64,000 nucleotides of DNA from a bacterium (GCA_018675685.1 JABGXP010000014.1:81288-145287); one strand, 5' to 3'; positions 13,691 through 26,060 are shown, counted from the stretch's first letter. The notes: generated by a model not told the origin, from the sequence alone. Numbers and translations: made by a program.

Positions 13691-13909
13691 ATGAATGCAT
13701 TGGTTCATGAGGTAGCAAAAGCTCTTTTTCTTACGGGAGCATTAGGTTTTTTAGTGCTTATAGTTGTGTCAATATATGGAGCACACAGAAAAAAACGGAG
13801 CAACGAAGATGGAATGCTGGACTATAAAAGGGATCTCAGACCTGTTTATTGGTTGCTTGCAACAATGGCGTTGATGATATCTGGAATTGGTTTGGGAATT
13901 TTTTTCTGA
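13691..13909 (+). CDS. small two-TM membrane protein, hypothetical
   Basis: Two hydrophobic helices. Preceded by a TTGACA-17-TAAAAT promoter-like sequence at 13580-13608 and an AGGAGAG RBS. Confidence 0.3.
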   Translation: MNALVHEVAKALFLTGALGFLVLIVVSIYGAHRKKRSNEDGMLDYKRDLRPVYWLLATMALMISGIGLGIFF

Positions 13910-14140
13910 CAACAGAAATTTTGTGAATATTTTTAAAAAGGCATGAACTAGAACTTCTAGTGCATGCCTTTTTACTTTTTGATTAACAGAAATCATTTTT
14001 TATAAGGATTTATTTGAACTATTTTTGAAATTATAACCAAAGTTTTTAATAAATACAACATTGCGGAATGAAGATTCTTTCATGTCAAGAGTTGACACCA
14101 TCCCAATGCAAGATTATAATGTAGTAGTGTCATGGAGTAC

Positions 14141-14169
14141 TTGATTGACACAACATATTGTGCTATTAT
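14141..14169 (+). promoter_or_regulatory. nrdR promoter (TTGATT/TTGACA ... TATTAT) overlapping a candidate NrdR box
   Basis: The 16-mer aCACAAcATATTGTGc at 14148-14163 is a near-perfect palindrome matching the published NrdR-box shape (CAC..ATAT..GTG). It sits between the -35 and -10 elements about 35 nt upstream of the nrdR ATG. Confidence 0.45.
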
Positions 14170-14197
14170 GTAGAAAAGAGTTAAATAAAACAAAATT

Positions 14198-14656
14198 ATG
14201 AAGTGTCCTTACTGTGGTCACAAGGAAACGAAGGTTGTTGATTCGCGAGAAATTGAAGACGGAAAGACGATCAGGAGGAGAAGGGAATGTGAGAAAGTGG
14301 AATGCAAGTTGAGATTTTCAACATATGAGCAAATTGAAACACTAAATTCGACTGTGTTGAAGCGCGACGGACAAAAAGAAGAATATAAAAGAGAGAAACT
14401 AGAAGAATCAATTAGAAGGGCAACAAACAAGAGATTGGAAGAATCTCAAATTGCACAAATTATTTCATCCGTTGAGTCCGAACTACGAACAAAGGGAAAA
14501 TGTGAGATGACTGCAAAGGAGATTGGAGAAGTAGTACTAACACATTTAAAAACACGCGATGAAGTTTCATATTTGCGATTTGCTTCAGTTTTTAAATCAT
14601 TTGGAACAGGAAAAAGATTTGTGAAAGAACTCGATAAGTTGGAGGAAAAAGAATAA
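14198..14656 (+). CDS. nrdR: transcriptional repressor NrdR (zinc ribbon plus ATP-cone)
   Basis: MKCPYCGHKETKVVDSRE ... RRRRECEKVECKLRFSTYE zinc ribbon followed by an ATP-cone. Confidence 0.9.
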   Translation: MKCPYCGHKETKVVDSREIEDGKTIRRRRECEKVECKLRFSTYEQIETLNSTVLKRDGQKEEYKREKLEESIRRATNKRLEESQIAQIISSVESELRTKGKCEMTAKEIGEVVLTHLKTRDEVSYLRFASVFKSFGTGKRFVKELDKLEEKE

Positions 14657-14764
14657 CAAAAAGATAAACACAAGAAAGGTAATTACATTTGGAAAGTTTT
14701 TGGCCAAAAATATTCCAATATTCCAATATCCATAATATATTAATTTTTGCGGGGGCAAACAAAA

Positions 14765-16894
14765 ATGAAAAAAGGGAAAAAACAGGTAGCTGCAAAGAAA
14801 GTGAACATTGCAAGAGCTACAAAAGGGGCGAAAACAAAGAAAAAAAGATTTGTACCGAAATTTAGCGAAGTTGTGAAAAGAGATGGCTCGGTGGTTAAAT
14901 TCTCTCAGAAAAAGATTTCAGAGGCTGTCTACAAGGCCTTCAAAGAGGTTGATGAGGGAAGTCTAGTGAAAGCAAGAGCTGTGTCAGAGAAAGCAGCTAG
15001 AATGCTGAGTAAGAACTGTGCACGTGGATATGTTCCGAGTATTGAAGAGGTTCAGGATACGGTTGAGAGAGTTTTAATGGTACTAGATTTTGAGGAAACA
15101 GCCAAAGCATATATCTTATATCGAGATAAGCGAAGAAAAATCAGAGACACAGAAGCTTCTTTGGAAGAAGCGGTTGAATTAGTGGATCAATACCTAAGAG
15201 AACTTGATTGGCAAGTGAAGGAAAATTCAAACATGGCATATTCCTTGCAAGGTTTGAATAATTACATTTCTTCAATTGTGAGTAGTAAGTACTGGATGGA
15301 AAGAATCTATGCAAAGAAAATTAAACGTTCGCATGAAGAAGGAGATCTACATATACATGACTTGGATAAATTAGCAGCTTATTGCTGTGGCTGGGATCTT
15401 CAAGATTTATTAAATAGAGGGTTCACAGGAGTTCCTGGAAAGATTTCCTGTAAACCACCACGACATTTTAGAACGGCGCTTGGACAATTAGTCAACTTCT
15501 TCTACACAACGCAGGGTGAAACAGCTGGAGCTCAAGCATTTTCAAACATTGATACATTGCTTGCACCATTTATTAAGTATGACAAGTTAGACTACAAAGC
15601 CGTGAAACAGGCTATTCAGGAATTTGTTTTCAATTTAAATGTTCCAACAAGGGTCGGATTTCAAACTCCATTTACCAATATCACATTAGACCTAGAGGTA
15701 CCAAAGATGTTCAAGGATCAGAATGTGATTAGGGGTGGTCAATTACAGGAAGACAAGTATGGTGATTTTCAAGAAGAGATGGACATGTTTAATCGGGCAT
15801 TTGCTGAAGTGATGAGCGAGGGTGATGCAAACGGAAGAGTGTTCACATTTCCAATTCCTACATATAACATTTCGAAGAAATTTAATTGGGATAACAAGAA
15901 TTTGGACAAAGTCTGGGAGATGACAGCTAAATATGGAATTCCATACTTTGCAAACTTCATTAATTCTGATATGGACCCAGAAGACGCTCGTTCAATGTGT
16001 TGCAGGCTAAGACTTGACAACAGAGAACTTCGGAAGAGAATGGGTGGCTTGTTTGGAGCTGCACCGCTAACAGGTTCAATTGGCGTTGTGACAATCAATC
16101 TTCCAAGAATTGGATACCTAGCAAAAGATAAAAAAGATTTCTATAAGAGATTAGATGTCCTAATGGATATCGCCAGAGACAGTTTGGAGGTCAAACGGAA
16201 GGTTATCGATAATTTTACAAAGAAAGGTTTGTATCCATATGCTGCATTCTATCTAGATGGGACGTTGCAAAGAAAGGGAAGTTGTTGGTCAAATCATTTC
16301 TCAACAATCGGCCTTGTGGGAATGAACGAGGCTGTTGTAAACTTGATTGGAAAATCAATTACCACAAAAACCGGAGTAAAATTCGCAGAAGAGGTTTTGG
16401 TTCATATGAGAGAGCGCATGATAAAATTCCAGACAGAAACTGATAATTTATATAACCTAGAAGCAACACCAGCAGAAGGAACAAGTTACCGACTAGCCCT
16501 CAAGGACCAAAAGCGTTTTCCAAAGATGATTTTTGCAAATAACGGAGCGGTAGAAGAAGGAGCTCAACCATATTACACAAACTCCTCGCAATTGCCTGTT
16601 GGACATACTGACGATCTATTTGAAGCACTGGACTTGCAAGATAAGTTGCAAACGAAGTATACTGGCGGGACTGTGCTACATGGATTTCTCGGAGAGCGAA
16701 TTAATGATATTAATACAACGAAAAGTCTTGTGAAAAAAATTGCCTCAAATTATGAGATGCCATATTTCACACTTTCTCCGACTTTCAGTGTTTGTCCAGT
16801 TCACGGGTATTTAACAGGAGAGCACAAGGCATGTCCAAAATGTGTTGCTCATTTGCCAGAGAAATATTCCAAGAAGTCTGCAGAGGTTAAATAA
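14765..16894 (+). CDS. nrdD: anaerobic ribonucleoside-triphosphate reductase (class III RNR) large polypeptide; it carries a C-terminal CxxH..CxxC zinc ribbon but no glycyl-radical motif
   Basis: N-terminal ATP-cone (VVKRDGSVVKFSQKKISEAVYKAF) and a class III RNR core. The polypeptide ends with SVCPVHGYLTGEHKACPKCV. The track ORF starts at TTG 14747; the ATG at 14765 is preferred. Confidence 0.85.
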   Translation: MKKGKKQVAAKKVNIARATKGAKTKKKRFVPKFSEVVKRDGSVVKFSQKKISEAVYKAFKEVDEGSLVKARAVSEKAARMLSKNCARGYVPSIEEVQDTVERVLMVLDFEETAKAYILYRDKRRKIRDTEASLEEAVELVDQYLRELDWQVKENSNMAYSLQGLNNYISSIVSSKYWMERIYAKKIKRSHEEGDLHIHDLDKLAAYCCGWDLQDLLNRGFTGVPGKISCKPPRHFRTALGQLVNFFYTTQGETAGAQAFSNIDTLLAPFIKYDKLDYKAVKQAIQEFVFNLNVPTRVGFQTPFTNITLDLEVPKMFKDQNVIRGGQLQEDKYGDFQEEMDMFNRAFAEVMSEGDANGRVFTFPIPTYNISKKFNWDNKNLDKVWEMTAKYGIPYFANFINSDMDPEDARSMCCRLRLDNRELRKRMGGLFGAAPLTGSIGVVTINLPRIGYLAKDKKDFYKRLDVLMDIARDSLEVKRKVIDNFTKKGLYPYAAFYLDGTLQRKGSCWSNHFSTIGLVGMNEAVVNLIGKSITTKTGVKFAEEVLVHMRERMIKFQTETDNLYNLEATPAEGTSYRLALKDQKRFPKMIFANNGAVEEGAQPYYTNSSQLPVGHTDDLFEALDLQDKLQTKYTGGTVLHGFLGERINDINTTKSLVKKIASNYEMPYFTLSPTFSVCPVHGYLTGEHKACPKCVAHLPEKYSKKSAEVK

Positions 16895-16945
16895 TTAGCA
16901 AATAAATAGTTTACATATTTAATAAAACCATAAAAAACAAAAAAA

Positions 16946-17224
16946 ATGGTAAAAGTTACAAAACAAAAAATAGGGGAAAGTGAAATAGTTTGTCATGACT
17001 GCGGCAAGACAATGGCGGAAGGTGACATGTGCGTGCCTTATGATGTGGCAAAAAAAACTTTCTACAAGTGCGATAAATGCTTTGTAAAAGATGATTCATT
17101 AAGAAATTATCAAGAGACAGAGGTTTATTCTAGGATCGTTGGTTATATTAGACCAGTGAAGCAATGGAATGTTGGGAAGACAGCAGAATACGCTGATAGA
17201 AAAGAGTATTGTGTAGAAGCTTAA
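16946..17224 (+). CDS. stand-alone class III RNR glycyl-radical domain protein (zinc ribbon plus RIVGY motif)
   Basis: CHDCG ... CDKC zinc ribbon followed by YSRIVGYIRPVKQWNVGKTAEYADRKEY, which matches the NrdD C-terminal glycyl-radical signature (RVCGYLG .. WN.GK .. E .. R). It is in the same frame as nrdD but separated by three in-frame stop codons within 51 nt. Confidence 0.7.
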   Translation: MVKVTKQKIGESEIVCHDCGKTMAEGDMCVPYDVAKKTFYKCDKCFVKDDSLRNYQETEVYSRIVGYIRPVKQWNVGKTAEYADRKEYCVEA

Positions 17225-17300
17225 GTTTGCTGAAGGTGTAACGAAAGTTGCACCTTCTTCTTTTTACCTAGAAAAAAGAAATTAAAAATTAAGAAGTAAA

Positions 17301-18368
17301 ATGAGAAAAAGAATCGAGAAGTTTAAGGAAACATTTCATGCCCAGTCCTTCATTGCTGGAATCGTCGCGATTGTTTTTTTAGCGGGACTGTTTGTTTTTG
17401 TTTCTAATTTTAGTTTGGGTTTTAACGCAGTTGGGATCTCTACAATGATCGGTGAAGATAAGGTTGCTAGTATAATGAAGGATTTAGTGGAAAATAATTT
17501 AACTAAGAAGGGAACAGATGTAGCTGTCGAGAATGTTGAGTTTATTAAGGAACTGGGATTGTATGAAGTTAAGATGAAGCTTGCTGGGAAGGCAGAAACT
17601 AGTGCTTTTTTAAGTAGGGACGGGAAATATTTTGTTAAAGAGGCTGCAAGTTTGGAAGAAATTAAGTCAAAACGTGAGGCTCAAGAAGAGGCTGCAGCTG
17701 GGGAAGCGGAAAGAAAAAGAGATATCAAGATTCCCAAAACCAAAAAACCTAATGTTGAAGTTTTTGTGATGAGTCACTGTCCATTTGGAACACAGGTGCA
17801 AAAAGGTTTTCTACCTGTTATCAAAAAACTCGGAAGTAAGGCGGATATAAATTTCAAGTTTGTGGATTATTTAATGCATGGAAAAAAAGAATTGACTGAA
17901 AATTTGAATCAATATTGCATTGAGCAAGAGGAAAATAAAAAATACTTGAAATACCTGGAATGTTTTTTGGGTAGCACAGGAGAGGCGAGTGATTCAACGA
18001 GTTGTATGAAGGAGTTCGGAATTTCTGAAAAGAAAATTGCAAGCTGCAGTACCAAAGTTGATGAGAAATTTCTCATAAGTAAGCAGTTCGCAGACAAAAC
18101 TACTTGGCAAGGAGGAAAATACCCGCTTTTTAATTTGCAAAAAGAAGAAAATGACAAATATAAAGTTGGGGGATCACCAACTATCGTGATTAACGGTGTT
18201 ACCGTTGAACCAAACCGAGATCCGAAGAGTCTTTTAAAAACGGTATGCTCAGCCTTTGAGGAGGCTCCAAAGGAGTGTGAAGAGGTCGTTCCCTCTCAAA
18301 CACCGTCTCCGGGATTTGGCATTGGGAAGGCCCCAACAGTTTCAAGTGATGGAGGTTGCGAAGAATAG
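17301..18368 (+). CDS. membrane-anchored thioredoxin-fold (DsbA-like) protein with an atypical CPFG motif
   Basis: N-terminal TM. VFVMSHCPFGTQ at the position of a thioredoxin CxxC, and GGSPTIVINGV resembling the DsbA-family cis-Pro region. The second cysteine is absent. Confidence 0.4.
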   Translation: MRKRIEKFKETFHAQSFIAGIVAIVFLAGLFVFVSNFSLGFNAVGISTMIGEDKVASIMKDLVENNLTKKGTDVAVENVEFIKELGLYEVKMKLAGKAETSAFLSRDGKYFVKEAASLEEIKSKREAQEEAAAGEAERKRDIKIPKTKKPNVEVFVMSHCPFGTQVQKGFLPVIKKLGSKADINFKFVDYLMHGKKELTENLNQYCIEQEENKKYLKYLECFLGSTGEASDSTSCMKEFGISEKKIASCSTKVDEKFLISKQFADKTTWQGGKYPLFNLQKEENDKYKVGGSPTIVINGVTVEPNRDPKSLLKTVCSAFEEAPKECEEVVPSQTPSPGFGIGKAPTVSSDGGCEE

Positions 18369-20901: not shown

Positions 20902-22230
20902 ATGTCAAAGAAAAAAAAGAAAAACGGGGGGCATGCAAAGAAAGAGATAATAGAATCAAACGTAAAAAAAGAAGCAATGAAAAAAGAAGACTCATTAAAG
21001 ACCGAGATGAAAAAAAGGGAAGAAGAAATCAAGGTGAACGCTGTCTCAAAAGAGGAAGTTAAATCAGAAGAAGAAATTGTTGGTCAAACAACACTTTCAG
21101 AATTGGATGAAAAGACAGAAAATCAAAAAACAATAAAAAATCTTGTTTCAGCTGTAATTTTGCTTTCAGGGATTGCAGTCGGTAGTTTTTTCGTTGATAT
21201 CGTCCAGTTTATGAGTGGTGATGGTTTCTCAAAGCGAGCTTTAGACAATTCCGAAGTATTGGTCGCAGGAGATCGAACCTGGGTAGCTTTTAATGAACCA
21301 GCCATTGATGTAAAAGTTTTGACTGTGAGTGAGGAAGAAATGAAGAATTGCAAGAATTGTGACACAAAGGAAGTGCTACTCTGGTTAAGGGATTACATTC
21401 CAACAATGGTAGTAAATAACGTGGATGCAGAATCAGAAGAAGGGAAGGCAATGATTGAAGCATATGAAATTAAATCATTACCAGCATTTTTCTTTTCTGA
21501 GGAAATCGAACAAACAAAGTTTTTCCAAGGTGAAGGTAGAGTTGTTTTCGCAGAAAAGAATGATTCTTTTATGCTAAATGCTGCTGGACTTGGAATCCCA
21601 GTCGGAAAGTATCTACAAACTCCTGAAGTAGGCGAAACAGATGCAATTCTTGGCAACAAAGAAGCGAAGGTGAAAGTGGTTGTTTTCTCTGATTTCCAGT
21701 GTCCATATTGTGGAGAACATTTTAAAAATGCAAAAGAAGCCGTTAAAGGTTTTAGCGAAGAAGAAGTTGCTCTTGTGTATAAAGACCTACCATTAAACTT
21801 TCATTTGCAAGGGAAAAATGCAGCAATGGCCGCAAGATGCAGTCAGGATCAAGAGAAATTTTGGGAAATGGGAGAACTGCTATATAGCTCACAAAAGGAT
21901 TGGCAGGACACTGAAGGAATTGCACAATTCAAAAAATATGCTAGAGAGCTAAAACTTGATACATTTAAATTTAACAAGTGTATGGATGATCGATCTGCAG
22001 AAGCTCTTGTTGATGAGGATTTGGCTCAGGCAAAGGAAATTGGAGTAACTGGAACACCAGCAACATTTGTTGGAACTCAGTTTGCAAGCGGAGTTGTTAC
22101 TGCACTAGAAATTAAAGCAATGATTCAAAATGAGTTGGATGGCGACATTGATGAGATGGACGCTGATATATTAGAAGATGTTTCAAGCGAAATGGAAGAA
22201 GAAACAGAAGAAGAAGTTAAAGTTCAATAA
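20902..22230 (+). CDS. membrane-anchored DsbA-family thiol:disulfide oxidoreductase (CPYC)
   Basis: K-rich N-terminus and a TM helix. Thioredoxin-fold domain with the FSDFQCPYCGEHF active site and DsbA-like helical insertion. Confidence 0.6.
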   Translation: MSKKKKKNGGHAKKEIIESNVKKEAMKKEDSLKTEMKKREEEIKVNAVSKEEVKSEEEIVGQTTLSELDEKTENQKTIKNLVSAVILLSGIAVGSFFVDIVQFMSGDGFSKRALDNSEVLVAGDRTWVAFNEPAIDVKVLTVSEEEMKNCKNCDTKEVLLWLRDYIPTMVVNNVDAESEEGKAMIEAYEIKSLPAFFFSEEIEQTKFFQGEGRVVFAEKNDSFMLNAAGLGIPVGKYLQTPEVGETDAILGNKEAKVKVVVFSDFQCPYCGEHFKNAKEAVKGFSEEEVALVYKDLPLNFHLQGKNAAMAARCSQDQEKFWEMGELLYSSQKDWQDTEGIAQFKKYARELKLDTFKFNKCMDDRSAEALVDEDLAQAKEIGVTGTPATFVGTQFASGVVTALEIKAMIQNELDGDIDEMDADILEDVSSEMEEETEEEVKVQ

Positions 22231-22251
22231 CTATTTATTCCTACGGGAATT

Positions 22252-22818
22252 ATGAAAAATAAAAACAAATACGAGATAATTATCCATGGCCGTGGGGGTC
22301 AGGGTGCTAAGACTACGGCTGAAATTTTGGTGCAAGCTGCTATTTTGAAGGGAAAATTTGTACAGGCTTTTCCAAATTTTGGCCCGGAACGAACAGGTGC
22401 TCCGATGTGTGCATTTGTGAGAATTTCCAATGAGCCAATCAGGACTCGCGAACCAGTCGTTGATCCTGATTGTGTTTTGGTCTTAGATGAAACGATTACC
22501 GATGTGATTGATGTAACAAAAAACGTAACAGATACGGAGGCTTTAATCATAAATTCGACAAAAGAAAAACAAGAATTGGCGAAGAAACTGAAGTTTGAGG
22601 GAAATCTTATCCCCATCGATGCTAGTGGGATGTCCCAAGAGATTATTGGTGAGAATAGACCTAATACAGTAATTATAGGTAGATTTGCTTTTGCTTCTCA
22701 TATTGTTGAACTGGAGGATGTAATAAAAGTTTTCCGCAATAAATATGAAAATAAAATTGGAAAAGAAAAGACTGATAAAAATATAAAAGCAATCGAAAAA
22801 GCTTTTAGGCATCACTAG
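22252..22818 (+). CDS. porG: pyruvate/2-oxoacid:ferredoxin oxidoreductase gamma subunit
   Basis: IIIHGRGGQGAKTTAEIL ... FPNFGPERTGAPMCAFVRIS. Confidence 0.85.
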   Translation: MKNKNKYEIIIHGRGGQGAKTTAEILVQAAILKGKFVQAFPNFGPERTGAPMCAFVRISNEPIRTREPVVDPDCVLVLDETITDVIDVTKNVTDTEALIINSTKEKQELAKKLKFEGNLIPIDASGMSQEIIGENRPNTVIIGRFAFASHIVELEDVIKVFRNKYENKIGKEKTDKNIKAIEKAFRHH

Positions 22819-22843
22819 AGTTAAGTTTTTTAGGTTTACAAAA

Positions 22844-23179
22844 ATGACACAAATAAAACAAACAAAAAGCACCCATTTTAGAAAAATAGCAGCAAAAACA
22901 AAACAGGAGAAGACCCAAATGGGGAAAGAATTAGGTGCTGCAATTGAAAATAAGGCTGAAAAATACCCTTCAATTGGAGAGTGGAAGAGTTCGATCTTCA
23001 CTGTCAAGGAGAAATGTATTGGCTGTGAAATGTGCGTAAAGCATTGTCCGGAGGCTGCTATAACAACAAAGGAAATCGGGGATAAAAAAAGAGCAGAAAT
23101 TGACCAATCTTTCTGTAAGGGTTGCGGGATATGCGAGAATGTTTGTCCAGTTGAAGCGATTGAGGTGAAGAAAATGTAA
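22844..23179 (+). CDS. porD: pyruvate:ferredoxin oxidoreductase delta subunit (2x[4Fe-4S] ferredoxin)
   Basis: Two CxxCxxCxxxCP motifs: CIGCEMCVKHCP and CKGCGICENVCP. Confidence 0.85.
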   Translation: MTQIKQTKSTHFRKIAAKTKQEKTQMGKELGAAIENKAEKYPSIGEWKSSIFTVKEKCIGCEMCVKHCPEAAITTKEIGDKKRAEIDQSFCKGCGICENVCPVEAIEVKKM

Positions 23180-23199
23180 GAGTTAAAAAGAAGGAATAA

Positions 23200-23871
23200 A
23201 TGGAAAAAAAATGTGGCAAGTTCAACTTGGTGATTGACTTTGACAGTACATTCATCAAATTGGAAGCCCTTGATGAACTGGCAAAGATTGCCCTGGAGAA
23301 TGATTCAAGAAAGGAAGAAAAAACTGCAGAGATACAGAAAATCACAAATCGTGGGATGGTAGGAGAAATCTCTTTTCCAGAATCACTACAATCAAGACTT
23401 GATTTGTTCAGTATAAAGAGAGAACATATAGAGAAGTTAATTAAGAAACTAAAAGGGAGTATTTCAGAATCCTTTTTGCGGAATAGAGATTTTTTTCTAA
23501 AAAATAAGGAGCATATATATATAATTTCAGGAGGTTTTCTCGACTATATTTTACCAGTTGCTCAAAATTTTGGAATTTCGAAAGAGCATATTTTAGCAAA
23601 TAGATTTGTTTTCGAAGGGGAGGATGTTATTGGTTTCGATAAGACAAGTTTTTTAGCGCAGGAAAGCGGTAAAGTGAAAGCTGTAAAAAATCTTGGAATT
23701 GGAAAAGTTGTGGTTGTCGGTGATGGATGGACTGATTATGAAATTAAAGAAACAGGTAATGCTGAAAACTTCTTTGCTTTTTCAGAGAATGTGAAGAGAG
23801 TAAAAGTAATAGAAGTTGCAGACGTAGAATGTTTTGACCTCGAACAAGTTATTGAAAAAATAAAGTCGTGA
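23200..23871 (+). CDS. HAD-superfamily hydrolase, phosphoserine-phosphatase (SerB)-like, inserted inside the por operon
   Basis: Motif I DFDST, motif II/III region and motif IV VVVVGDGWTDYE. SerB-like cap helices (SLQSRL). Confidence 0.55.
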   Translation: MEKKCGKFNLVIDFDSTFIKLEALDELAKIALENDSRKEEKTAEIQKITNRGMVGEISFPESLQSRLDLFSIKREHIEKLIKKLKGSISESFLRNRDFFLKNKEHIYIISGGFLDYILPVAQNFGISKEHILANRFVFEGEDVIGFDKTSFLAQESGKVKAVKNLGIGKVVVVGDGWTDYEIKETGNAENFFAFSENVKRVKVIEVADVECFDLEQVIEKIKS

Positions 23872-23903
23872 AAATAGGCTAACACATTTATTGTTATATA
23901 AAG

Positions 23904-25031
23904 ATGAATACAAAAAATAAAAAAATTGCGCTTACTGGCGGTTATGCTGTTGGTGAGGCGATGCGACAAATTAATCCAGACGTTGTTGCAATGTACCCGA
24001 TTACTCCACAAACTCCAATTATTGAATATTTTGCTAAACAAAAAGCAAACGGAAAAGTGAAAACGGAGGTTGTCACTGTTGAGTCAGAGCACAGTGCTAT
24101 GAGTGCTTGTATTGGCTCTTCAGCATCAGGTGCACGAACTTTAACAGCTTCAAGCTCTCAGGGGATCATGTATATGTTTGAAGTTTTGCCAGTCGCTTCT
24201 TCAATGAGATTGCCAATTTTAATGGCAGTTTCAAATCGTGCAATTTCAGGGCCAATCAATATCCATGGTGATCATTCTGATGCCATGGCGATGAGAGATA
24301 CAGGCTGGATTCAAATTTTTGCCGAAAACACTCAGGAGGCATACGACAACACGATTATCGGAATGAAATTGGCAGAAAAAGCTCTTTTGCCTCTTGCGAC
24401 TAACATGGATGGATTTTTTGTTTCACATAGCGTTGAAAACCTAGAACTACTCGAAGACGAAGAAGTAAAAGGATTTATTGGTGAATATTCCCCTAAACAA
24501 AGTTTGTTTGACTTTGACAATCCGAAAACCTTTGGACCTGTTGCTTTGCAGAATTCTTATTTTGAGTTTAGAAAACAAATTCAGGATGCAATGCTGAAAA
24601 CTTCAAAAATGTTTGAAGAGGTGGCAGAAGAGTTTGAAAAAATATCCAAAAGAAAATATGGTTTTGTCGAGGAATATCGAACTGAAGACGCAGGTAAGGT
24701 AATAGTTGCGATGGGGAGTGTTTGCGGAACCATCAAAGAAACAGTTGATCGCCTAAGAGACGAAGGGAAGAACGTTGGGTTGTTGAAAATAAGACTTTTC
24801 AGACCATTTCCTTATAAGCAGGTTGCCAAAGCGCTAAAAGGTGTGCAAGATATTATTGTAATGGATCGAAACTTAGCATTTGGAACGAAGCAGGTTTTAG
24901 CATCTGAGATTGAACATGCAACAGGAAAGAAAGTACAAAGCGTTGTTTATGGGTTGGGAGGAAGAGATGTCTTCGAGAAACAGATTGAAGAGTTGTTCTT
25001 GGAAGAGAAATCCCCAGAATATTTAATGTAA
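23904..25031 (+). CDS. porA: pyruvate:ferredoxin oxidoreductase alpha subunit
   Basis: GGYAVGEAMRQINPDVVAMYPITPQT N-terminal pyrimidine-binding domain, typical of PorA. Confidence 0.85.
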   Translation: MNTKNKKIALTGGYAVGEAMRQINPDVVAMYPITPQTPIIEYFAKQKANGKVKTEVVTVESEHSAMSACIGSSASGARTLTASSSQGIMYMFEVLPVASSMRLPILMAVSNRAISGPINIHGDHSDAMAMRDTGWIQIFAENTQEAYDNTIIGMKLAEKALLPLATNMDGFFVSHSVENLELLEDEEVKGFIGEYSPKQSLFDFDNPKTFGPVALQNSYFEFRKQIQDAMLKTSKMFEEVAEEFEKISKRKYGFVEEYRTEDAGKVIVAMGSVCGTIKETVDRLRDEGKNVGLLKIRLFRPFPYKQVAKALKGVQDIIVMDRNLAFGTKQVLASEIEHATGKKVQSVVYGLGGRDVFEKQIEELFLEEKSPEYLM

Positions 25032-25069
25032 AAAGGCAATAATTTAAAAATAAGTCTTAGATTTGAAAT

Positions 25070-25990
25070 ATGAACAAAACATATAAAAAACAAAAATTTA
25101 CTGCAGCTACGACTTGTGCTGGTTGCCCAATTGGAGTTGTGGCTCGCACCGTTTTAAATGCAACCGATGATCCCATCGTGGTTACTAATGCAACCGGATG
25201 TATGGAGGTAACTTCTACTATATATCCCAATACCTCCTGGAAAGTTCCATATATACATAGCGTTTTTGGTAATGCTGGTGCAACTGCTTCGGGGATTGAA
25301 GCTGCTGTAAAATCTCTCAGTAAACAAGGAAAAGTTGATGAAAAAGTTAAAGTTATTGCTTTTGCTGGCGATGGTGGAACCTATGATATTGGCTTTCAGG
25401 CACTTTCTGGTGCGCTAGAAAGAGGCCATGACTTCTTGTATGTTTGTTATGATAATGGAGCTTATATGAACACAGGGAATCAGAGAAGTGGAGCAACTCC
25501 TTTAGGGGCTAGCACACAAACAACTCCTTTTGGAAAAGAAGCTTTCGGAAAGCAAACCAGAAGAAAAGATATTATGACAATTGTGGCTGGTCACCATGTT
25601 CCGTATGCAGCAACAGCAAATATTGGTTTTCTGGAAGATTTTAAAGCTAAGGTCAAAAAAGCTCTAGCAATTAAAGGCCCAAAATTTATTCTAGTTTTTT
25701 CACCCTGTGTTGCACTTTGGAAGTTTCCACCTGCAAAGACCTTTGAGGTTGCAAAGCTCGGCACAGAGACTAATTTTTGGCCTTTGTATGAGATTGAAAA
25801 TGGGCACTATAAGTTCTCCTATGAACCAAAAAAGCGAAAACCAATTGAAGAATTTTATGGCACCCAGGGAAGGTTCAAACATATCTTCAAAAGAGACGAC
25901 AAAGAAGCTTTATTGCAAAAAATTCAAAAAGAAATTGACGATGATTTTGCAAGAATTAAAGCAACAGTTGAATCACATCAAAAAGTATAA
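25070..25990 (+). CDS. porB: pyruvate:ferredoxin oxidoreductase beta subunit (TPP-binding)
   Basis: CAGCPIG N-terminal cysteine motif and the TPP-binding AFAGDGGTYDIG. Confidence 0.85.
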   Translation: MNKTYKKQKFTAATTCAGCPIGVVARTVLNATDDPIVVTNATGCMEVTSTIYPNTSWKVPYIHSVFGNAGATASGIEAAVKSLSKQGKVDEKVKVIAFAGDGGTYDIGFQALSGALERGHDFLYVCYDNGAYMNTGNQRSGATPLGASTQTTPFGKEAFGKQTRRKDIMTIVAGHHVPYAATANIGFLEDFKAKVKKALAIKGPKFILVFSPCVALWKFPPAKTFEVAKLGTETNFWPLYEIENGHYKFSYEPKKRKPIEEFYGTQGRFKHIFKRDDKEALLQKIQKEIDDDFARIKATVESHQKV

Positions 25991-26060
25991 AATACATTAA
26001 AAAGCAATTAAGCTTTTAATTAATTGTAGAAGCTAAATAACTTTGAACAGGAAATAGTAT

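Follow-up and report, generated by a model that had tools for sequence, protein, structure and literature searches.

A class III ribonucleotide reductase likely encoded in two pieces: a stand-alone glycyl-radical domain protein behind a truncated nrdD of a Patescibacteria lineage

Class III ribonucleotide reductases (RNR) are essential and oxygen-labile in many anaerobes. Oxygen inactivates glycyl-radical enzymes (GRE) by cleavage of the chain at the radical glycine, which for class III RNR is irreversible. A gene for such an enzyme that lacks the radical loop raises the question whether it is a decaying gene, a gene joined to its missing part by recoding, or one half of an enzyme that works in two pieces. 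We analysed such a gene in a stretch of 64,000 nt (GCA_018675685.1, JABGXP010000014.1:81288-145287), here termed the window, whose source is an ultra-small (CPR) bacterium, a Patescibacteria lineage. A sequence-only reading had proposed a class III RNR with its radical domain encoded as a separate zinc-ribbon mini-protein, resembling GrcA/YfiD. It had described a 709-aa NrdD that stops past its zinc ribbon without a radical motif, an adjacent NrdR with a candidate NrdR box, and, 51 nt downstream of nrdD, a 92-aa ORF in the same frame behind three stops; it took the gap to be neither simple readthrough nor a group I intron and saw no nrdG in the window. Support for the stops, alignment to known NrdDs and a search for the same split in relatives were named as checks, and a small ORF lacking conservation would have refuted the proposal. 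From comparative genomics, and without any biochemistry, we consider it likely that the locus encodes a two-piece class III RNR in which a GrcA-like spare part is now the only radical-bearing subunit.

The features of the locus are compiled in Table 1. For the large ORF two starts are possible, of which the ATG is preceded by GGGGG. The chain ends in SVCPVHGYLTGEHKACPKCVAHLPEKYSKKSAEVK directly before the stop codon; it has no RxxGY motif, and none was found when its last 75 residues were searched. Single-frame translation of 16700-17224 places the stops between the ORFs at 16892-16894 (TAA), 16907-16909 (TAG) and 16931-16933 (TAA), with the ATG of the small ORF at 16946. The sequence, these stops included, is the same over 3103 nt in three assemblies that come from different samples and archives (two from ENA, one NCBI MAG). 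Thus, the split nrdD is not an assembly artefact and sequencing error is ruled out as the cause of the stops. The exact 92-aa protein is furthermore indexed in 81 blocks of the sequence collection.

Table 1. Annotated features of the nrdR-nrdD locus; positions count from the first nucleotide of the window
Feature	Position	Strand	Basis and remarks
Sigma-70-type promoter-like site (TTGACA, 17 nt, TATAAT)	14092..14120	+	12/12 consensus match only; upstream of nrdR
Candidate NrdR box ACACAACATATTGTGC	14148..14163	+	14/16 consensus; 50 nt 5' of nrdR start
nrdR, 152 aa, transcriptional repressor with Zn ribbon and ATP-cone	14198..14656	+	TIGR00244, PF22811, PF03477
nrdD large chain, 709 aa (715 aa from TTG 14747)	14765..16894	+	NF006126, PF13597
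Zinc site kept in large chain, CPVH...CPKC	16793..16843	+	sequence and alignment to 4COI, 8P23
A/T-rich spacer, 51 nt, two more in-frame stops	16895..16945	+	frame translation; Rfam 0 matches
Putative stand-alone glycyl-radical domain protein, 92 aa	16946..17224	+	PF13597 positions 510-562
Cys4 ribbon of small ORF	16991-17080	+	C16, C19, C42, C45
Radical glycine G66 codon GGT, small ORF	17141-17143	+	C-terminal tail downstream
Intrinsic-terminator-like hairpin and T-run	17232..17267	+	11-pair stem, then TTCTTTTTAC

Judged by profile matches, the large chain clearly belongs to NF006126, catalytic barrel included. It covers positions 3-655 of 684 of this NCBIfam model with 1032.8 bits (cutoff 548), reaches 534.1 bits with TIGR02487 (cutoff 326.35) and matches the Pfam family NRDD (PF13597) over positions 1-528 of 562 (E = 2.7e-185); an ATP-cone is present. 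The ends of the ORF and of the profile matches agree with a chain that stops past the zinc ribbon without a radical motif. The chain aligns to the NrdDs of T. maritima (4COI) and P. copri (8P23) as far as the zinc sites. In these sequence alignments, which are the only basis for the assignment, the finger-loop SMCCRLRLD falls on the cysteine segment of 4COI and the first-strand segment AAYCCGWDL on both structures. The zinc site, with a Cys3His ligand set, aligns to the zinc-ribbon cysteines of both and is kept in all truncated and full-length relatives. Truncated-type large chains are 70-90% identical to full-length relatives, and the closest full-length relatives of the window NrdD are 75-80% identical to it. 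Since the large chain keeps its CxxH...CxxC zinc site, the small ORF is not simply a cut-off remainder.

The small ORF matches the very end of the Pfam NRDD model (positions 510-562 of 562, E = 1e-11) and has the anatomy that had been described for it, with C16-x2-C19 and C42-x2-C45, followed by the loop YSRIVG66Y and a tail. The residues C16, C19, C42, C45, G66, Y67, R69, P70, W74 and N75 are invariant among its homologues. On these motifs we regard it as a second radical domain that is complete and brings a Cys4 ribbon of its own. There was no match at E <= 0.01 to Pfam Gly_radical (PF01228) or to the NCBIfam GrcA model, and when the profile of the small family and phmmer were used against the PDB, NrdD chains were matched weakly (E = 0.036 for 4COI, 0.3 for 8P23). 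An AlphaFold2 model of the 92-aa protein (pLDDT 82.6) places G66 at the tip of a beta-hairpin. In the cryo-EM structure of P. copri NrdD the radical domain consists of a Zn site, the buried glycine loop and a tail, and it is highly mobile; the authors expect a largely rigid-body motion (PMC11226230). The 92-aa protein has a Zn site, a glycine loop and a tail, and hence fits this definition. A model of the large chain fused to the small one, based on 27 aligned sequences of full-length NrdDs and small proteins, reached only pLDDT 58.5 and pTM 0.47, which is too poor to judge about docking. Between the window and the relative L009, pN and pS are 0.093 and 0.83 for the small ORF and 0.076 and 0.78 for the large ORF. 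To go by these ratios, both are under purifying selection, and the small ORF is conserved.

Homologues of the small protein are numerous. All of the best 120 of 179 homologues found are 65-130 aa long. An exhaustive profile search yielded 868 cluster representatives at E <= 1e-10, of which the best 150 all have lengths of 42-159 aa. RxxGY is kept in 143 of 146 retrieved family sequences and is preceded by at least two CxxC motifs in 120 of the 146; members are annotated as 'hypothetical' or generically as 'NrdD'. Comparison thus places the small protein in an old and widespread family of what appear to be autonomous NrdD-type radical domains. The genes occur in three contexts. The small gene can lie between a full-length nrdD and nrdG, as in the cultured Minisyncoccus archaeiphilus; the order [nrdR]-nrdD-small-nrdG is found there and in many Patescibacteria MAGs. 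It can lie behind a truncated nrdD, as in the window. Finally, it is unlinked to nrdD in Desulfobacterales MAGs that also hold a full-length nrdD-nrdG elsewhere; these unlinked genes have a good Shine-Dalgarno sequence. Their neighbourhood shows only synteny with AsmA-like and S1-domain genes, which gives no functional clue.

Among the related loci, 14 have an upstream NrdD with the EVYSR[IV]VGY loop still in place and 9 have one without it, so the split sought in relatives does recur. The gap between nrdD and the small gene varies between -11 and 136 nt, and most loci have the two genes in different frames. Accordingly, the two ORFs do share one frame across three stops in the window, as had been noted, but this sharing is coincidental. 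Because the small protein stands beside a full-length NrdD in many relatives, the arrangement of the window is a derived one that arose by loss of the cis domain. Parsimony on 157 NrdDs gives a full-length root and about 10 losses (neighbour-joining tree without support values). The loss is always accompanied by a small gene downstream, and a small ORF was found downstream of every truncated NrdD examined. This held as a prediction for three further independent truncated lineages (P0155, P0131 and P0200), in each of which the small ORF follows directly.

Several loci preserve intermediates of the decay. The cis loop ends as EVYSQIVS before a stop in L007, reads EVFLKVGEE in L011 and TVYLKVVMAD before a stop in L018, and has become KIYSKIVGVDENK before a stop in P0178. 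In L096 a fresh frameshift and an in-frame stop lie inside a still recognisable cis loop (VVGYLCPTS, stop, WNTGKAEEYANRKEFVT), while an intact trans copy and nrdG follow downstream. In the window no such relic was detected, as local alignment of 16850-16945 with the cis-domain DNA of L005, L012 and L017 was no better than with shuffled sequence; therefore, the loss in this lineage is old. The comparison indicates that NrdD's own loop decayed in several Patescibacteria lineages and that the putative spare part was then left as the sole carrier of the radical. Where both loops exist, the trans loop is most like the cis loop of its own locus in 11 of 13 loci (identity 0.875 vs 0.753). Near-identical trans and cis loops are what a shared binding site predicts. 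Identical codons make up 42-79% of the identical residues between cis and trans loops, and gene conversion, instead of a common binding site, could explain part of the co-variation. The comparison shows the anatomy of the locus, its conservation and synteny, the recurrent losses and the co-variation.

The regulatory signals fit one transcription unit. A terminator-like hairpin begins 8 nt past the stop of the small ORF and is the sole such site on the + strand within 13900-17400, from which we infer a common transcript for nrdR, nrdD and the small ORF; the promoter-like site upstream of nrdR is inferred to be the putative operon promoter. Within the spacer no promoter-like or terminator-like site was found to start, no ORF is present and a search against Rfam, introns included, gave 0 matches at E <= 1, in line with the earlier view that the gap is not a group I intron. 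A Shine-Dalgarno sequence for the small ORF was not found, its leader being merely A-rich, and likewise for nearly all CPR homologues. NrdR is indeed adjacent to nrdD and its assignment rests on 154 bits against TIGR00244 (cutoff 124.65) and on matches to Pfam PF22811 and PF03477. NrdR boxes (acaCwAtATaTwGtgt) usually occur as a tandem pair. The candidate box is the only match with <=3 mismatches in the whole window, so that a single box without a second is present, and its count is by itself not above chance (0.93 expected in the window). The support for the candidate comes from relatives. Of 23 related loci, 21 carry an equivalent box ahead of nrdR that matches 12-15 of 16 positions; in L009 and L003 it shares the -50 location, and in the nrdR-nrdD spacers taken as controls the box score never exceeds 11.

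The activase gene is missing from the window, as previously stated: there is no ORF of at least 80 aa with CxxxCxxC in the 64 kb, and an NrdG query gave no match in tblastn. In most relatives nrdG lies directly downstream of the small ORF; the closest relatives L005, L007, L009 and L017 lack an adjacent nrdG. We could not locate the nrdG of the window genome among the best 120 matches of a search with a relative's NrdG.

We propose the following mechanism. An NrdG-type radical-SAM activase encoded elsewhere in the genome would take the C-alpha hydrogen from Gly66 of the small protein. The glycine hairpin would then enter the barrel of the large chain in place of the usual cis C-terminal domain, and in turnover the radical would shuttle between Gly66 and the finger-loop cysteine. 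The large chain would supply the ATP-cone, the barrel with the thiyl-radical cysteine loop and the structural zinc site. After oxygen damage only the 10-kDa subunit would need replacing. Expression of the small protein, activation and radical formation at Gly66, docking and the catalytic competence of the pair are inferred, and no biochemical, transcript or peptide evidence exists for them. Conservation, synteny, co-variation and the linkage to truncated NrdDs support a separately encoded zinc-ribbon radical domain, as the sequence-only reading had it, and the likeness to GrcA/YfiD is strengthened by the 14 loci that pair the same small protein with a full-length NrdD.

Other explanations have to be weighed against such a two-piece enzyme, in which the packing of two zinc ribbons, one per chain, is unexplained. 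The small protein might be a regulator, decoy or radical buffer that titrates NrdG, senses oxygen or stores the radical, and the truncated NrdD might have a role other than that of a reductase. We think this unlikely. In its favour, there are no activity data and no structural docking model was obtained. The small protein also occurs beside full-length NrdDs, which could in principle do without it, and as a gene unlinked to nrdD in Desulfobacterales, and its additional Cys4 ribbon has no counterpart in GrcA. However, the truncated NrdDs keep ATP-cone, finger-loop cysteines, zinc site and NrdR control and are as constrained as full-length ones. A barrel without a radical source would be useless as reductase, yet it is kept in about 10 lineages. 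Moreover, in its glycine loop and tail the small protein agrees with the partner's cis loop at nearly every residue, and in L096 it is the cis loop that decays while the trans copy is intact.

Very little speaks for a joining of the two ORFs by ribosomal bypass as in T4 gene 60, by stop readthrough or by RNA splicing. The ORFs share one frame, the 51-nt gap is near the 50-nt coding gap of gene 60 and it is flanked by AAA codons, but three stops would have to be passed, and every small ORF starts with an ATG of its own and encodes a conserved ribbon at the N-terminus. Joined into one chain, the products would have two zinc ribbons in tandem, an arrangement seen in no full-length relative, and the same protein occurs as an unlinked gene. 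Gene-60-type bypass and readthrough, the latter already doubted from the three stops, were rejected because of the variation of gap length and frame across homologous loci, and an intron or other RNA element in the spacer because of the lack of any Rfam match. Even less probable, and strongly disfavoured, is that nrdD is a decaying pseudogene or assembly artefact with the small ORF as a leftover fragment. The missing loop, which is essential to the canonical enzyme, the A/T-rich gap and the absence of nrdG from the window could be read this way. Against it stand the identity of three independent assemblies, intact ORFs across a clade with saturated synonymous sites and pN <0.1, the size and spread of the family, and the N-terminal ribbon of the small ORF, which is conserved and was not part of the ancestral cis tail. 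The preferred reading remains that of a catalytic chain with its radical domain on a second polypeptide.

Such an arrangement has partial precedents. GrcA/YfiD of E. coli and Y06I of T4 are autonomous glycyl-radical 'spare parts' of pyruvate formate-lyase (PMC13450708, PMC12288474), and a review of June 2026 states that spare parts have been identified for no GRE class other than formate lyases (PMC13450708). Like GrcA, the small protein is a small stand-alone copy of a GRE C-terminal radical domain with the glycine motif and, in relatives though not in the window, coexists with a full-length partner (14 loci and the Desulfobacterales MAGs). By this analogy, it would be activated by the activase of its partner and would replace the oxygen-cleaved domain (PMC13450708, PMC12288474). 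In contrast to GrcA, it matches only Pfam NRDD, has a Cys4 zinc ribbon and partners an RNR instead of a formate lyase, and hence is an analogue derived from NrdD and not a member of the GrcA family. A further difference is that the only nrdD of the window is truncated, without a full-length partner; because the partner's own domain was lost here and in about 10 lineages, the 'spare' has become obligatory. A pyruvate formate-lyase with a likewise obligatory spare part was not found in the literature searched, and a full-text literature search did not turn up any account of a separately encoded radical domain for NrdD.

Divided RNR genes are known from other classes and from phages. In the split class II enzyme NrdJa/NrdJb the catalytic chain is likewise divided near the C-terminus between adjacent genes, the small downstream one encoding a zinc-finger product (PMC9669993); NrdJ, however, uses AdoCbl, and in the window a zinc module is present in both pieces and not divided between them. 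The 'genes-in-pieces' NrdA of Aeromonas phage Aeh1 and the intron- or intein-split nrdD genes of T4, Lactococcus phage 949 and Clostridium phage c-st are also interrupted in DNA with function kept or presumed (PMC3653736; Friedrich 2007 and Crona 2011, as far as they are cited in 10.1101/2022.08.31.505936). Unlike these phage splits, which are due to homing endonucleases, group I introns or inteins, the spacer of the window has 51 nt with neither ORF nor RNA family, and its small piece stems from an independent gene family older than the truncation. With canonical NrdDs (T4, T. maritima, P. copri) the large chain shares ATP-cone, barrel, finger-loop cysteines and zinc site; what differs is that the glycine loop and tail are on a second gene. 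Conceptually, a radical on a separate small subunit that docks on the catalytic subunit recalls the alpha/beta organization of class I RNR, although proteins and chemistry are unrelated: the beta subunit of class I is a ferritin-like di-metal or tyrosyl protein, and its radical is transferred over a long range.

Taken further, and with less confidence than for the locus itself, we lean towards regarding this as the first natural two-component GRE and the first RNR spare-part system, in which an exchangeable 10-kDa zinc-ribbon protein would dock on a radical-less NrdD and which would have evolved repeatedly from a widespread, unrecognised GrcA-like repair protein found from Patescibacteria to Desulfobacterales. 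A replaceable radical domain, if true, would be a repair strategy not recognised before for dNTP synthesis, parallel to GrcA. If NrdD is the only RNR of the genome-reduced Patescibacteria that live at oxic-anoxic interfaces, such repair may be important to them. There are practical consequences as well. Hundreds of annotations as 'hypothetical' or mis-sized 'NrdD' could be renamed, and a truncated nrdD should not be taken for a pseudogene. Barrel and radical domain as separate proteins would ease the study of activase recognition, docking and radical transfer, and cultured Minisyncoccus archaeiphilus offers a model organism with the full-length-plus-spare version. The truncated forms show that a GRE radical domain can work, or at least be selected, as a separate subunit, and the family preserves the intermediates of a change from 'spare part' to 'obligate subunit' that took place more than once.

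We show here that the small protein encoded downstream of nrdD is a complete and constrained radical domain of the NrdD type. The radical domain of the P. copri NrdD consists of a zinc site, a buried glycine loop and a tail (PMC11226230), and the 92-aa protein has all three elements. It matches the last 53 positions of Pfam NRDD (E = 1e-11), and its motifs run C16-x2-C19 ... C42-x2-C45, followed by YSRIVG66Y. In the AlphaFold2 model calculated with the family alignment (pLDDT 82.6), the hairpins of the ribbon come first; strands 59-62 and 67-70 then form a beta-hairpin that has G66 at its tip, and a helix follows. In the NrdDs of E. coli and T4, radical generation requires the zinc site, which would explain why an autonomous domain has its own ribbon. 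A word-indexed search returned 179 homologues of the small ORF, and all 120 among the matches listed are 65-130 aa long; when 1.84 billion cluster representatives were searched exhaustively with a profile, 868 matched at E <= 1e-10, and the best 150 of these all span 42-159 aa. Of the 146 family members retrieved, RxxGY is kept in 143 and two CxxC precede it in 120, while the four cysteines, Y32, G66 and the signature YSR.VGY.RP..WN..K..E...R are invariant in 36 diverse members. Family members are annotated at source as 'hypothetical protein' or, generically, 'anaerobic ribonucleoside-triphosphate reductase', and neither Pfam nor NCBIfam holds a family-specific model.

The large chain, conversely, is an NrdD that is complete and constrained except for the glycine loop. 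It carries an ATP-cone and matches Pfam NRDD at 1-528 of 562 and NCBIfam NF006126 at 3-655 of 684 (1032.8 bits, cutoff 548). Aligned to the solved NrdD structures from T. maritima and P. copri it reaches the zinc-ribbon cysteines and breaks off there. A sequence-only reading had described an nrdD without its radical loop, a small ORF carrying one and three in-frame stops between them; the profile matches and a one-frame translation of 16700-17224 (TAA, TAG, TAA) confirm this description.

The truncated state is derived and arose repeatedly from ancestors that had full-length NrdD plus the small protein. The closest 120 homologues of NrdD divide into 83 full-length ones (...CPxHGY..GEH..CPKCVIEQKCEVYSRIVGYIRPV.QWN.GK...) and 37 that end shortly past CPKC. 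Parsimony on a neighbour-joining tree of 157 NrdDs gives a full-length root and about 10 losses, an approximate count because the tree lacks support values. The truncated tails vary in decay, with EVYSQIVS* (locus L007), EVFLKVGEE... (L011), TVYLKVVMAD* (L018) and KIYSKIVGVDENK* (homologue P0178) as examples. At locus L096 (5090-5270; GCA_053939025.1, JBMXOQ010000003.1) the cis loop is, judged from its sequence, freshly pseudogenised: a frameshift and an in-frame stop interrupt it, it is still readable as VVGYLCPTS*WNTGKAEEYANRKEFVT, and gene calling placed a 38-aa ORF on the relic. Just downstream, a trans copy of 86 aa (IVGYLRPTSQWNAGKAEEYADRKEFVT) is intact, and nrdG comes next. No DNA relic of the cis loop is left in the window's own lineage. 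When the model was tested on three further independent truncated lineages, the small ORF lay directly downstream in all three, and no truncated NrdD without a small ORF was found among those examined. Several NrdD homologues of Patescibacteria, truncated ones included, contain large insertions (P0219 and P0232, both 1027 aa, L086 with an NrdD ORF of 1117 aa, and L087); those of P0219 and P0232 match the intein and LAGLIDADG families PF14890 and PF14528 of Pfam, and inteins have thus entered this NrdD clade too.

Where both loops exist, they resemble each other. In 11 of 13 such loci the best match of the trans glycine loop and tail (32 residues) is the cis loop of the same locus (identity 0.875, against 0.753 to other loci), and the lineage-specific signatures NEGKQQEF, NAGKSEEY, NKGKQAEF and NVGKTEEY are common to cis and trans copies. 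Such similarity would be expected of two loops that must fit one and the same site of a shared barrel; a contribution from occasional gene conversion is possible.

A survey of GTDB species genomes and metagenome contigs revealed three contexts of the small gene. At 14 loci a full-length NrdD with an EVYSR[IV]VGY loop is followed by the small ORF and nrdG, among them the complete genome of the cultured Minisyncoccus archaeiphilus (L001); locus L005, also with full-length NrdD, has the window's PriA-LigB-NrdR-NrdD-small synteny. The loop-less arrangement of the window, again with the small ORF behind NrdD, recurs at 8 further loci. Finally, the small ORF occurs without nrdD or nrdG within 6 kb in Desulfobacterales, other Deltaproteobacteria, Syntrophales, Saccharibacteria and a Methanophagales-labelled contig. 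Two Desulfobacterales MAGs (L035/L073 and L044/L074) combine an unlinked small gene with a full-length nrdD on another contig, and one of them also has nrdG in the stretch examined. The unlinked Desulfobacterales gene sits in a conserved neighbourhood of AsmA-like and S1-domain genes, also on a 4.99-Mb contig (L092). A rubrerythrin-like gene, judged by its sequence start only, lies directly 3' of one unlinked copy (L026:6326-6898), and a ferritin/rubrerythrin gene about 4 kb from another (L092:12536-13075); a connection with oxidative stress is possible, chance association not being ruled out. On the Methanophagales-labelled contig (L028:4300-9900) the small gene is surrounded by numerous short ORFs and immediately follows an ORF of 292 aa that by eye resembles a DNA methyltransferase. 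The stretch resembles a virus or a mobile element, and the spare-part gene could thus sometimes travel on mobile DNA.

Features of the nrdR-nrdD-small ORF region in the window
Feature	Position	Strand	Remarks
Sigma-70-type promoter match	14092-14120	+	perfect
Candidate NrdR box	14148-14163		14/16 consensus positions; single box, no tandem pair
nrdR	14198-14656	+	co-oriented with nrdD and small ORF
nrdD large chain	14765-16894	+	alternative TTG start 14747; GGGGG run 5' of ATG
Small ORF, 92 aa	16946-17224	+	same orientation as nrdR and nrdD
Terminator-like hairpin	17232-17257	+	only one on + strand in operon region; directly 3' of small ORF

The promoter match and the sole terminator-like hairpin suggest that nrdR, nrdD and the small ORF form one transcript; no terminator-like site separates nrdD from the adjoining small ORF. 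The NrdR box proposed earlier is not significant in the window by its count alone, but 21 of 23 related loci conserve an equivalent box ahead of nrdR, with control spacers reaching at most 11/16. The window's small ORF has no Shine-Dalgarno sequence and starts behind a conserved A-rich leader (16926-16945, AACCATAAAAAACAAAAAAA-ATG) of a kind that nearly all CPR homologues have, whereas Desulfobacterales small genes have a canonical GGAGG. In three Minisyncoccales loci (L001, L024, L027) the small gene begins just 4 nt past the nrdD stop, suggesting translational coupling, although L027 is not delimited and may overlap; most other gaps measure 16-136 nt. Further genes surround the operon. Between a LigB/Memo-like gene and nrdR, a 72-aa ORF (13691-13909), by eye a two-helix membrane protein, is called in three independent assemblies and has no Pfam match. 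Downstream lie a thioredoxin-fold protein (17301-18368; GILT and Thioredoxin_4 matches below Pfam cutoffs only, N-terminus hydrophobic by eye), a PEGA-domain protein on the opposite strand, a second thioredoxin-fold protein (about 20902-22230, mapped from L089 coordinates; Thioredoxin_4 and DSBA matches) and a pyruvate:ferredoxin oxidoreductase cluster (about 22250-26000).

We consider it probable that the locus encodes a two-piece enzyme of large chain and small protein, with the reservation that expression and activity data are lacking and the nrdG of this genome has not been located. Neither an NrdG-like sequence nor a radical-SAM (CxxxCxxC) ORF occurs in the window, in agreement with the initial reading. 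Gaps and frames that vary between loci contradict a single product joined by recoding or bypass of the stops, as do the unlinked copies and the failure to find an RNA element, and the earlier exclusion of readthrough and of an intron holds on the same grounds. Equally, a pseudogene or assembly artefact would not account for three assemblies, which come from different samples and archives and agree with the window at each of 3103 nt, the stops among them; the stops are real and no sequencing error. Both ORFs are moreover under constraint, since in the comparison with L009, the closest relative, synonymous differences have reached saturation and non-synonymous ones amount to only 0.093 (small ORF) and 0.076 (large chain). 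A purely regulatory small protein cannot be excluded, yet it would leave unexplained why about 10 lineages keep radical-less barrels and constrain them strongly. For the two-piece enzyme, we infer that Gly66 of the small protein would receive its radical through NrdG, presumably encoded elsewhere in the genome; the hairpin of the small protein would then dock into the large-chain barrel and stand in for the cis domain that was lost.

In function, GrcA/YfiD, to which the sequence-only reading had likened the mini-protein, is the nearest precedent. GrcA replaces the oxygen-cleaved radical domain of pyruvate formate-lyase as a spare part (PMC13450708, PMC12288474). According to a review of June 2026, spare parts have been identified for no class of glycyl-radical enzymes other than formate lyases (PMC13450708). 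The small ORF does not belong to that family, as it has no Gly_radical match in Pfam or NCBIfam; unlike GrcA it also has a zinc ribbon, and the enzyme it serves belongs to another class. Split ribonucleotide reductases are known from NrdJa/NrdJb (PMC9669993) and from phage genes interrupted by introns, inteins or endonucleases (PMC3653736), however in none of these is the detached piece the part of a glycyl-radical enzyme that bears the radical. We found no description of a separate NrdD radical domain in full-text searches; most subscription journals were outside coverage, and a prior mention is possible. In genomes with full-length NrdD, the small protein would, by analogy with GrcA, serve as a spare once oxygen has cleaved the enzyme. 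The comparative evidence supports and extends the idea of a separate radical-domain protein, its activity being inferred in the absence of activity data: the small ORF probably encodes an autonomous glycyl-radical cofactor for class III ribonucleotide reductase, which in the organism studied here would be obligatory.
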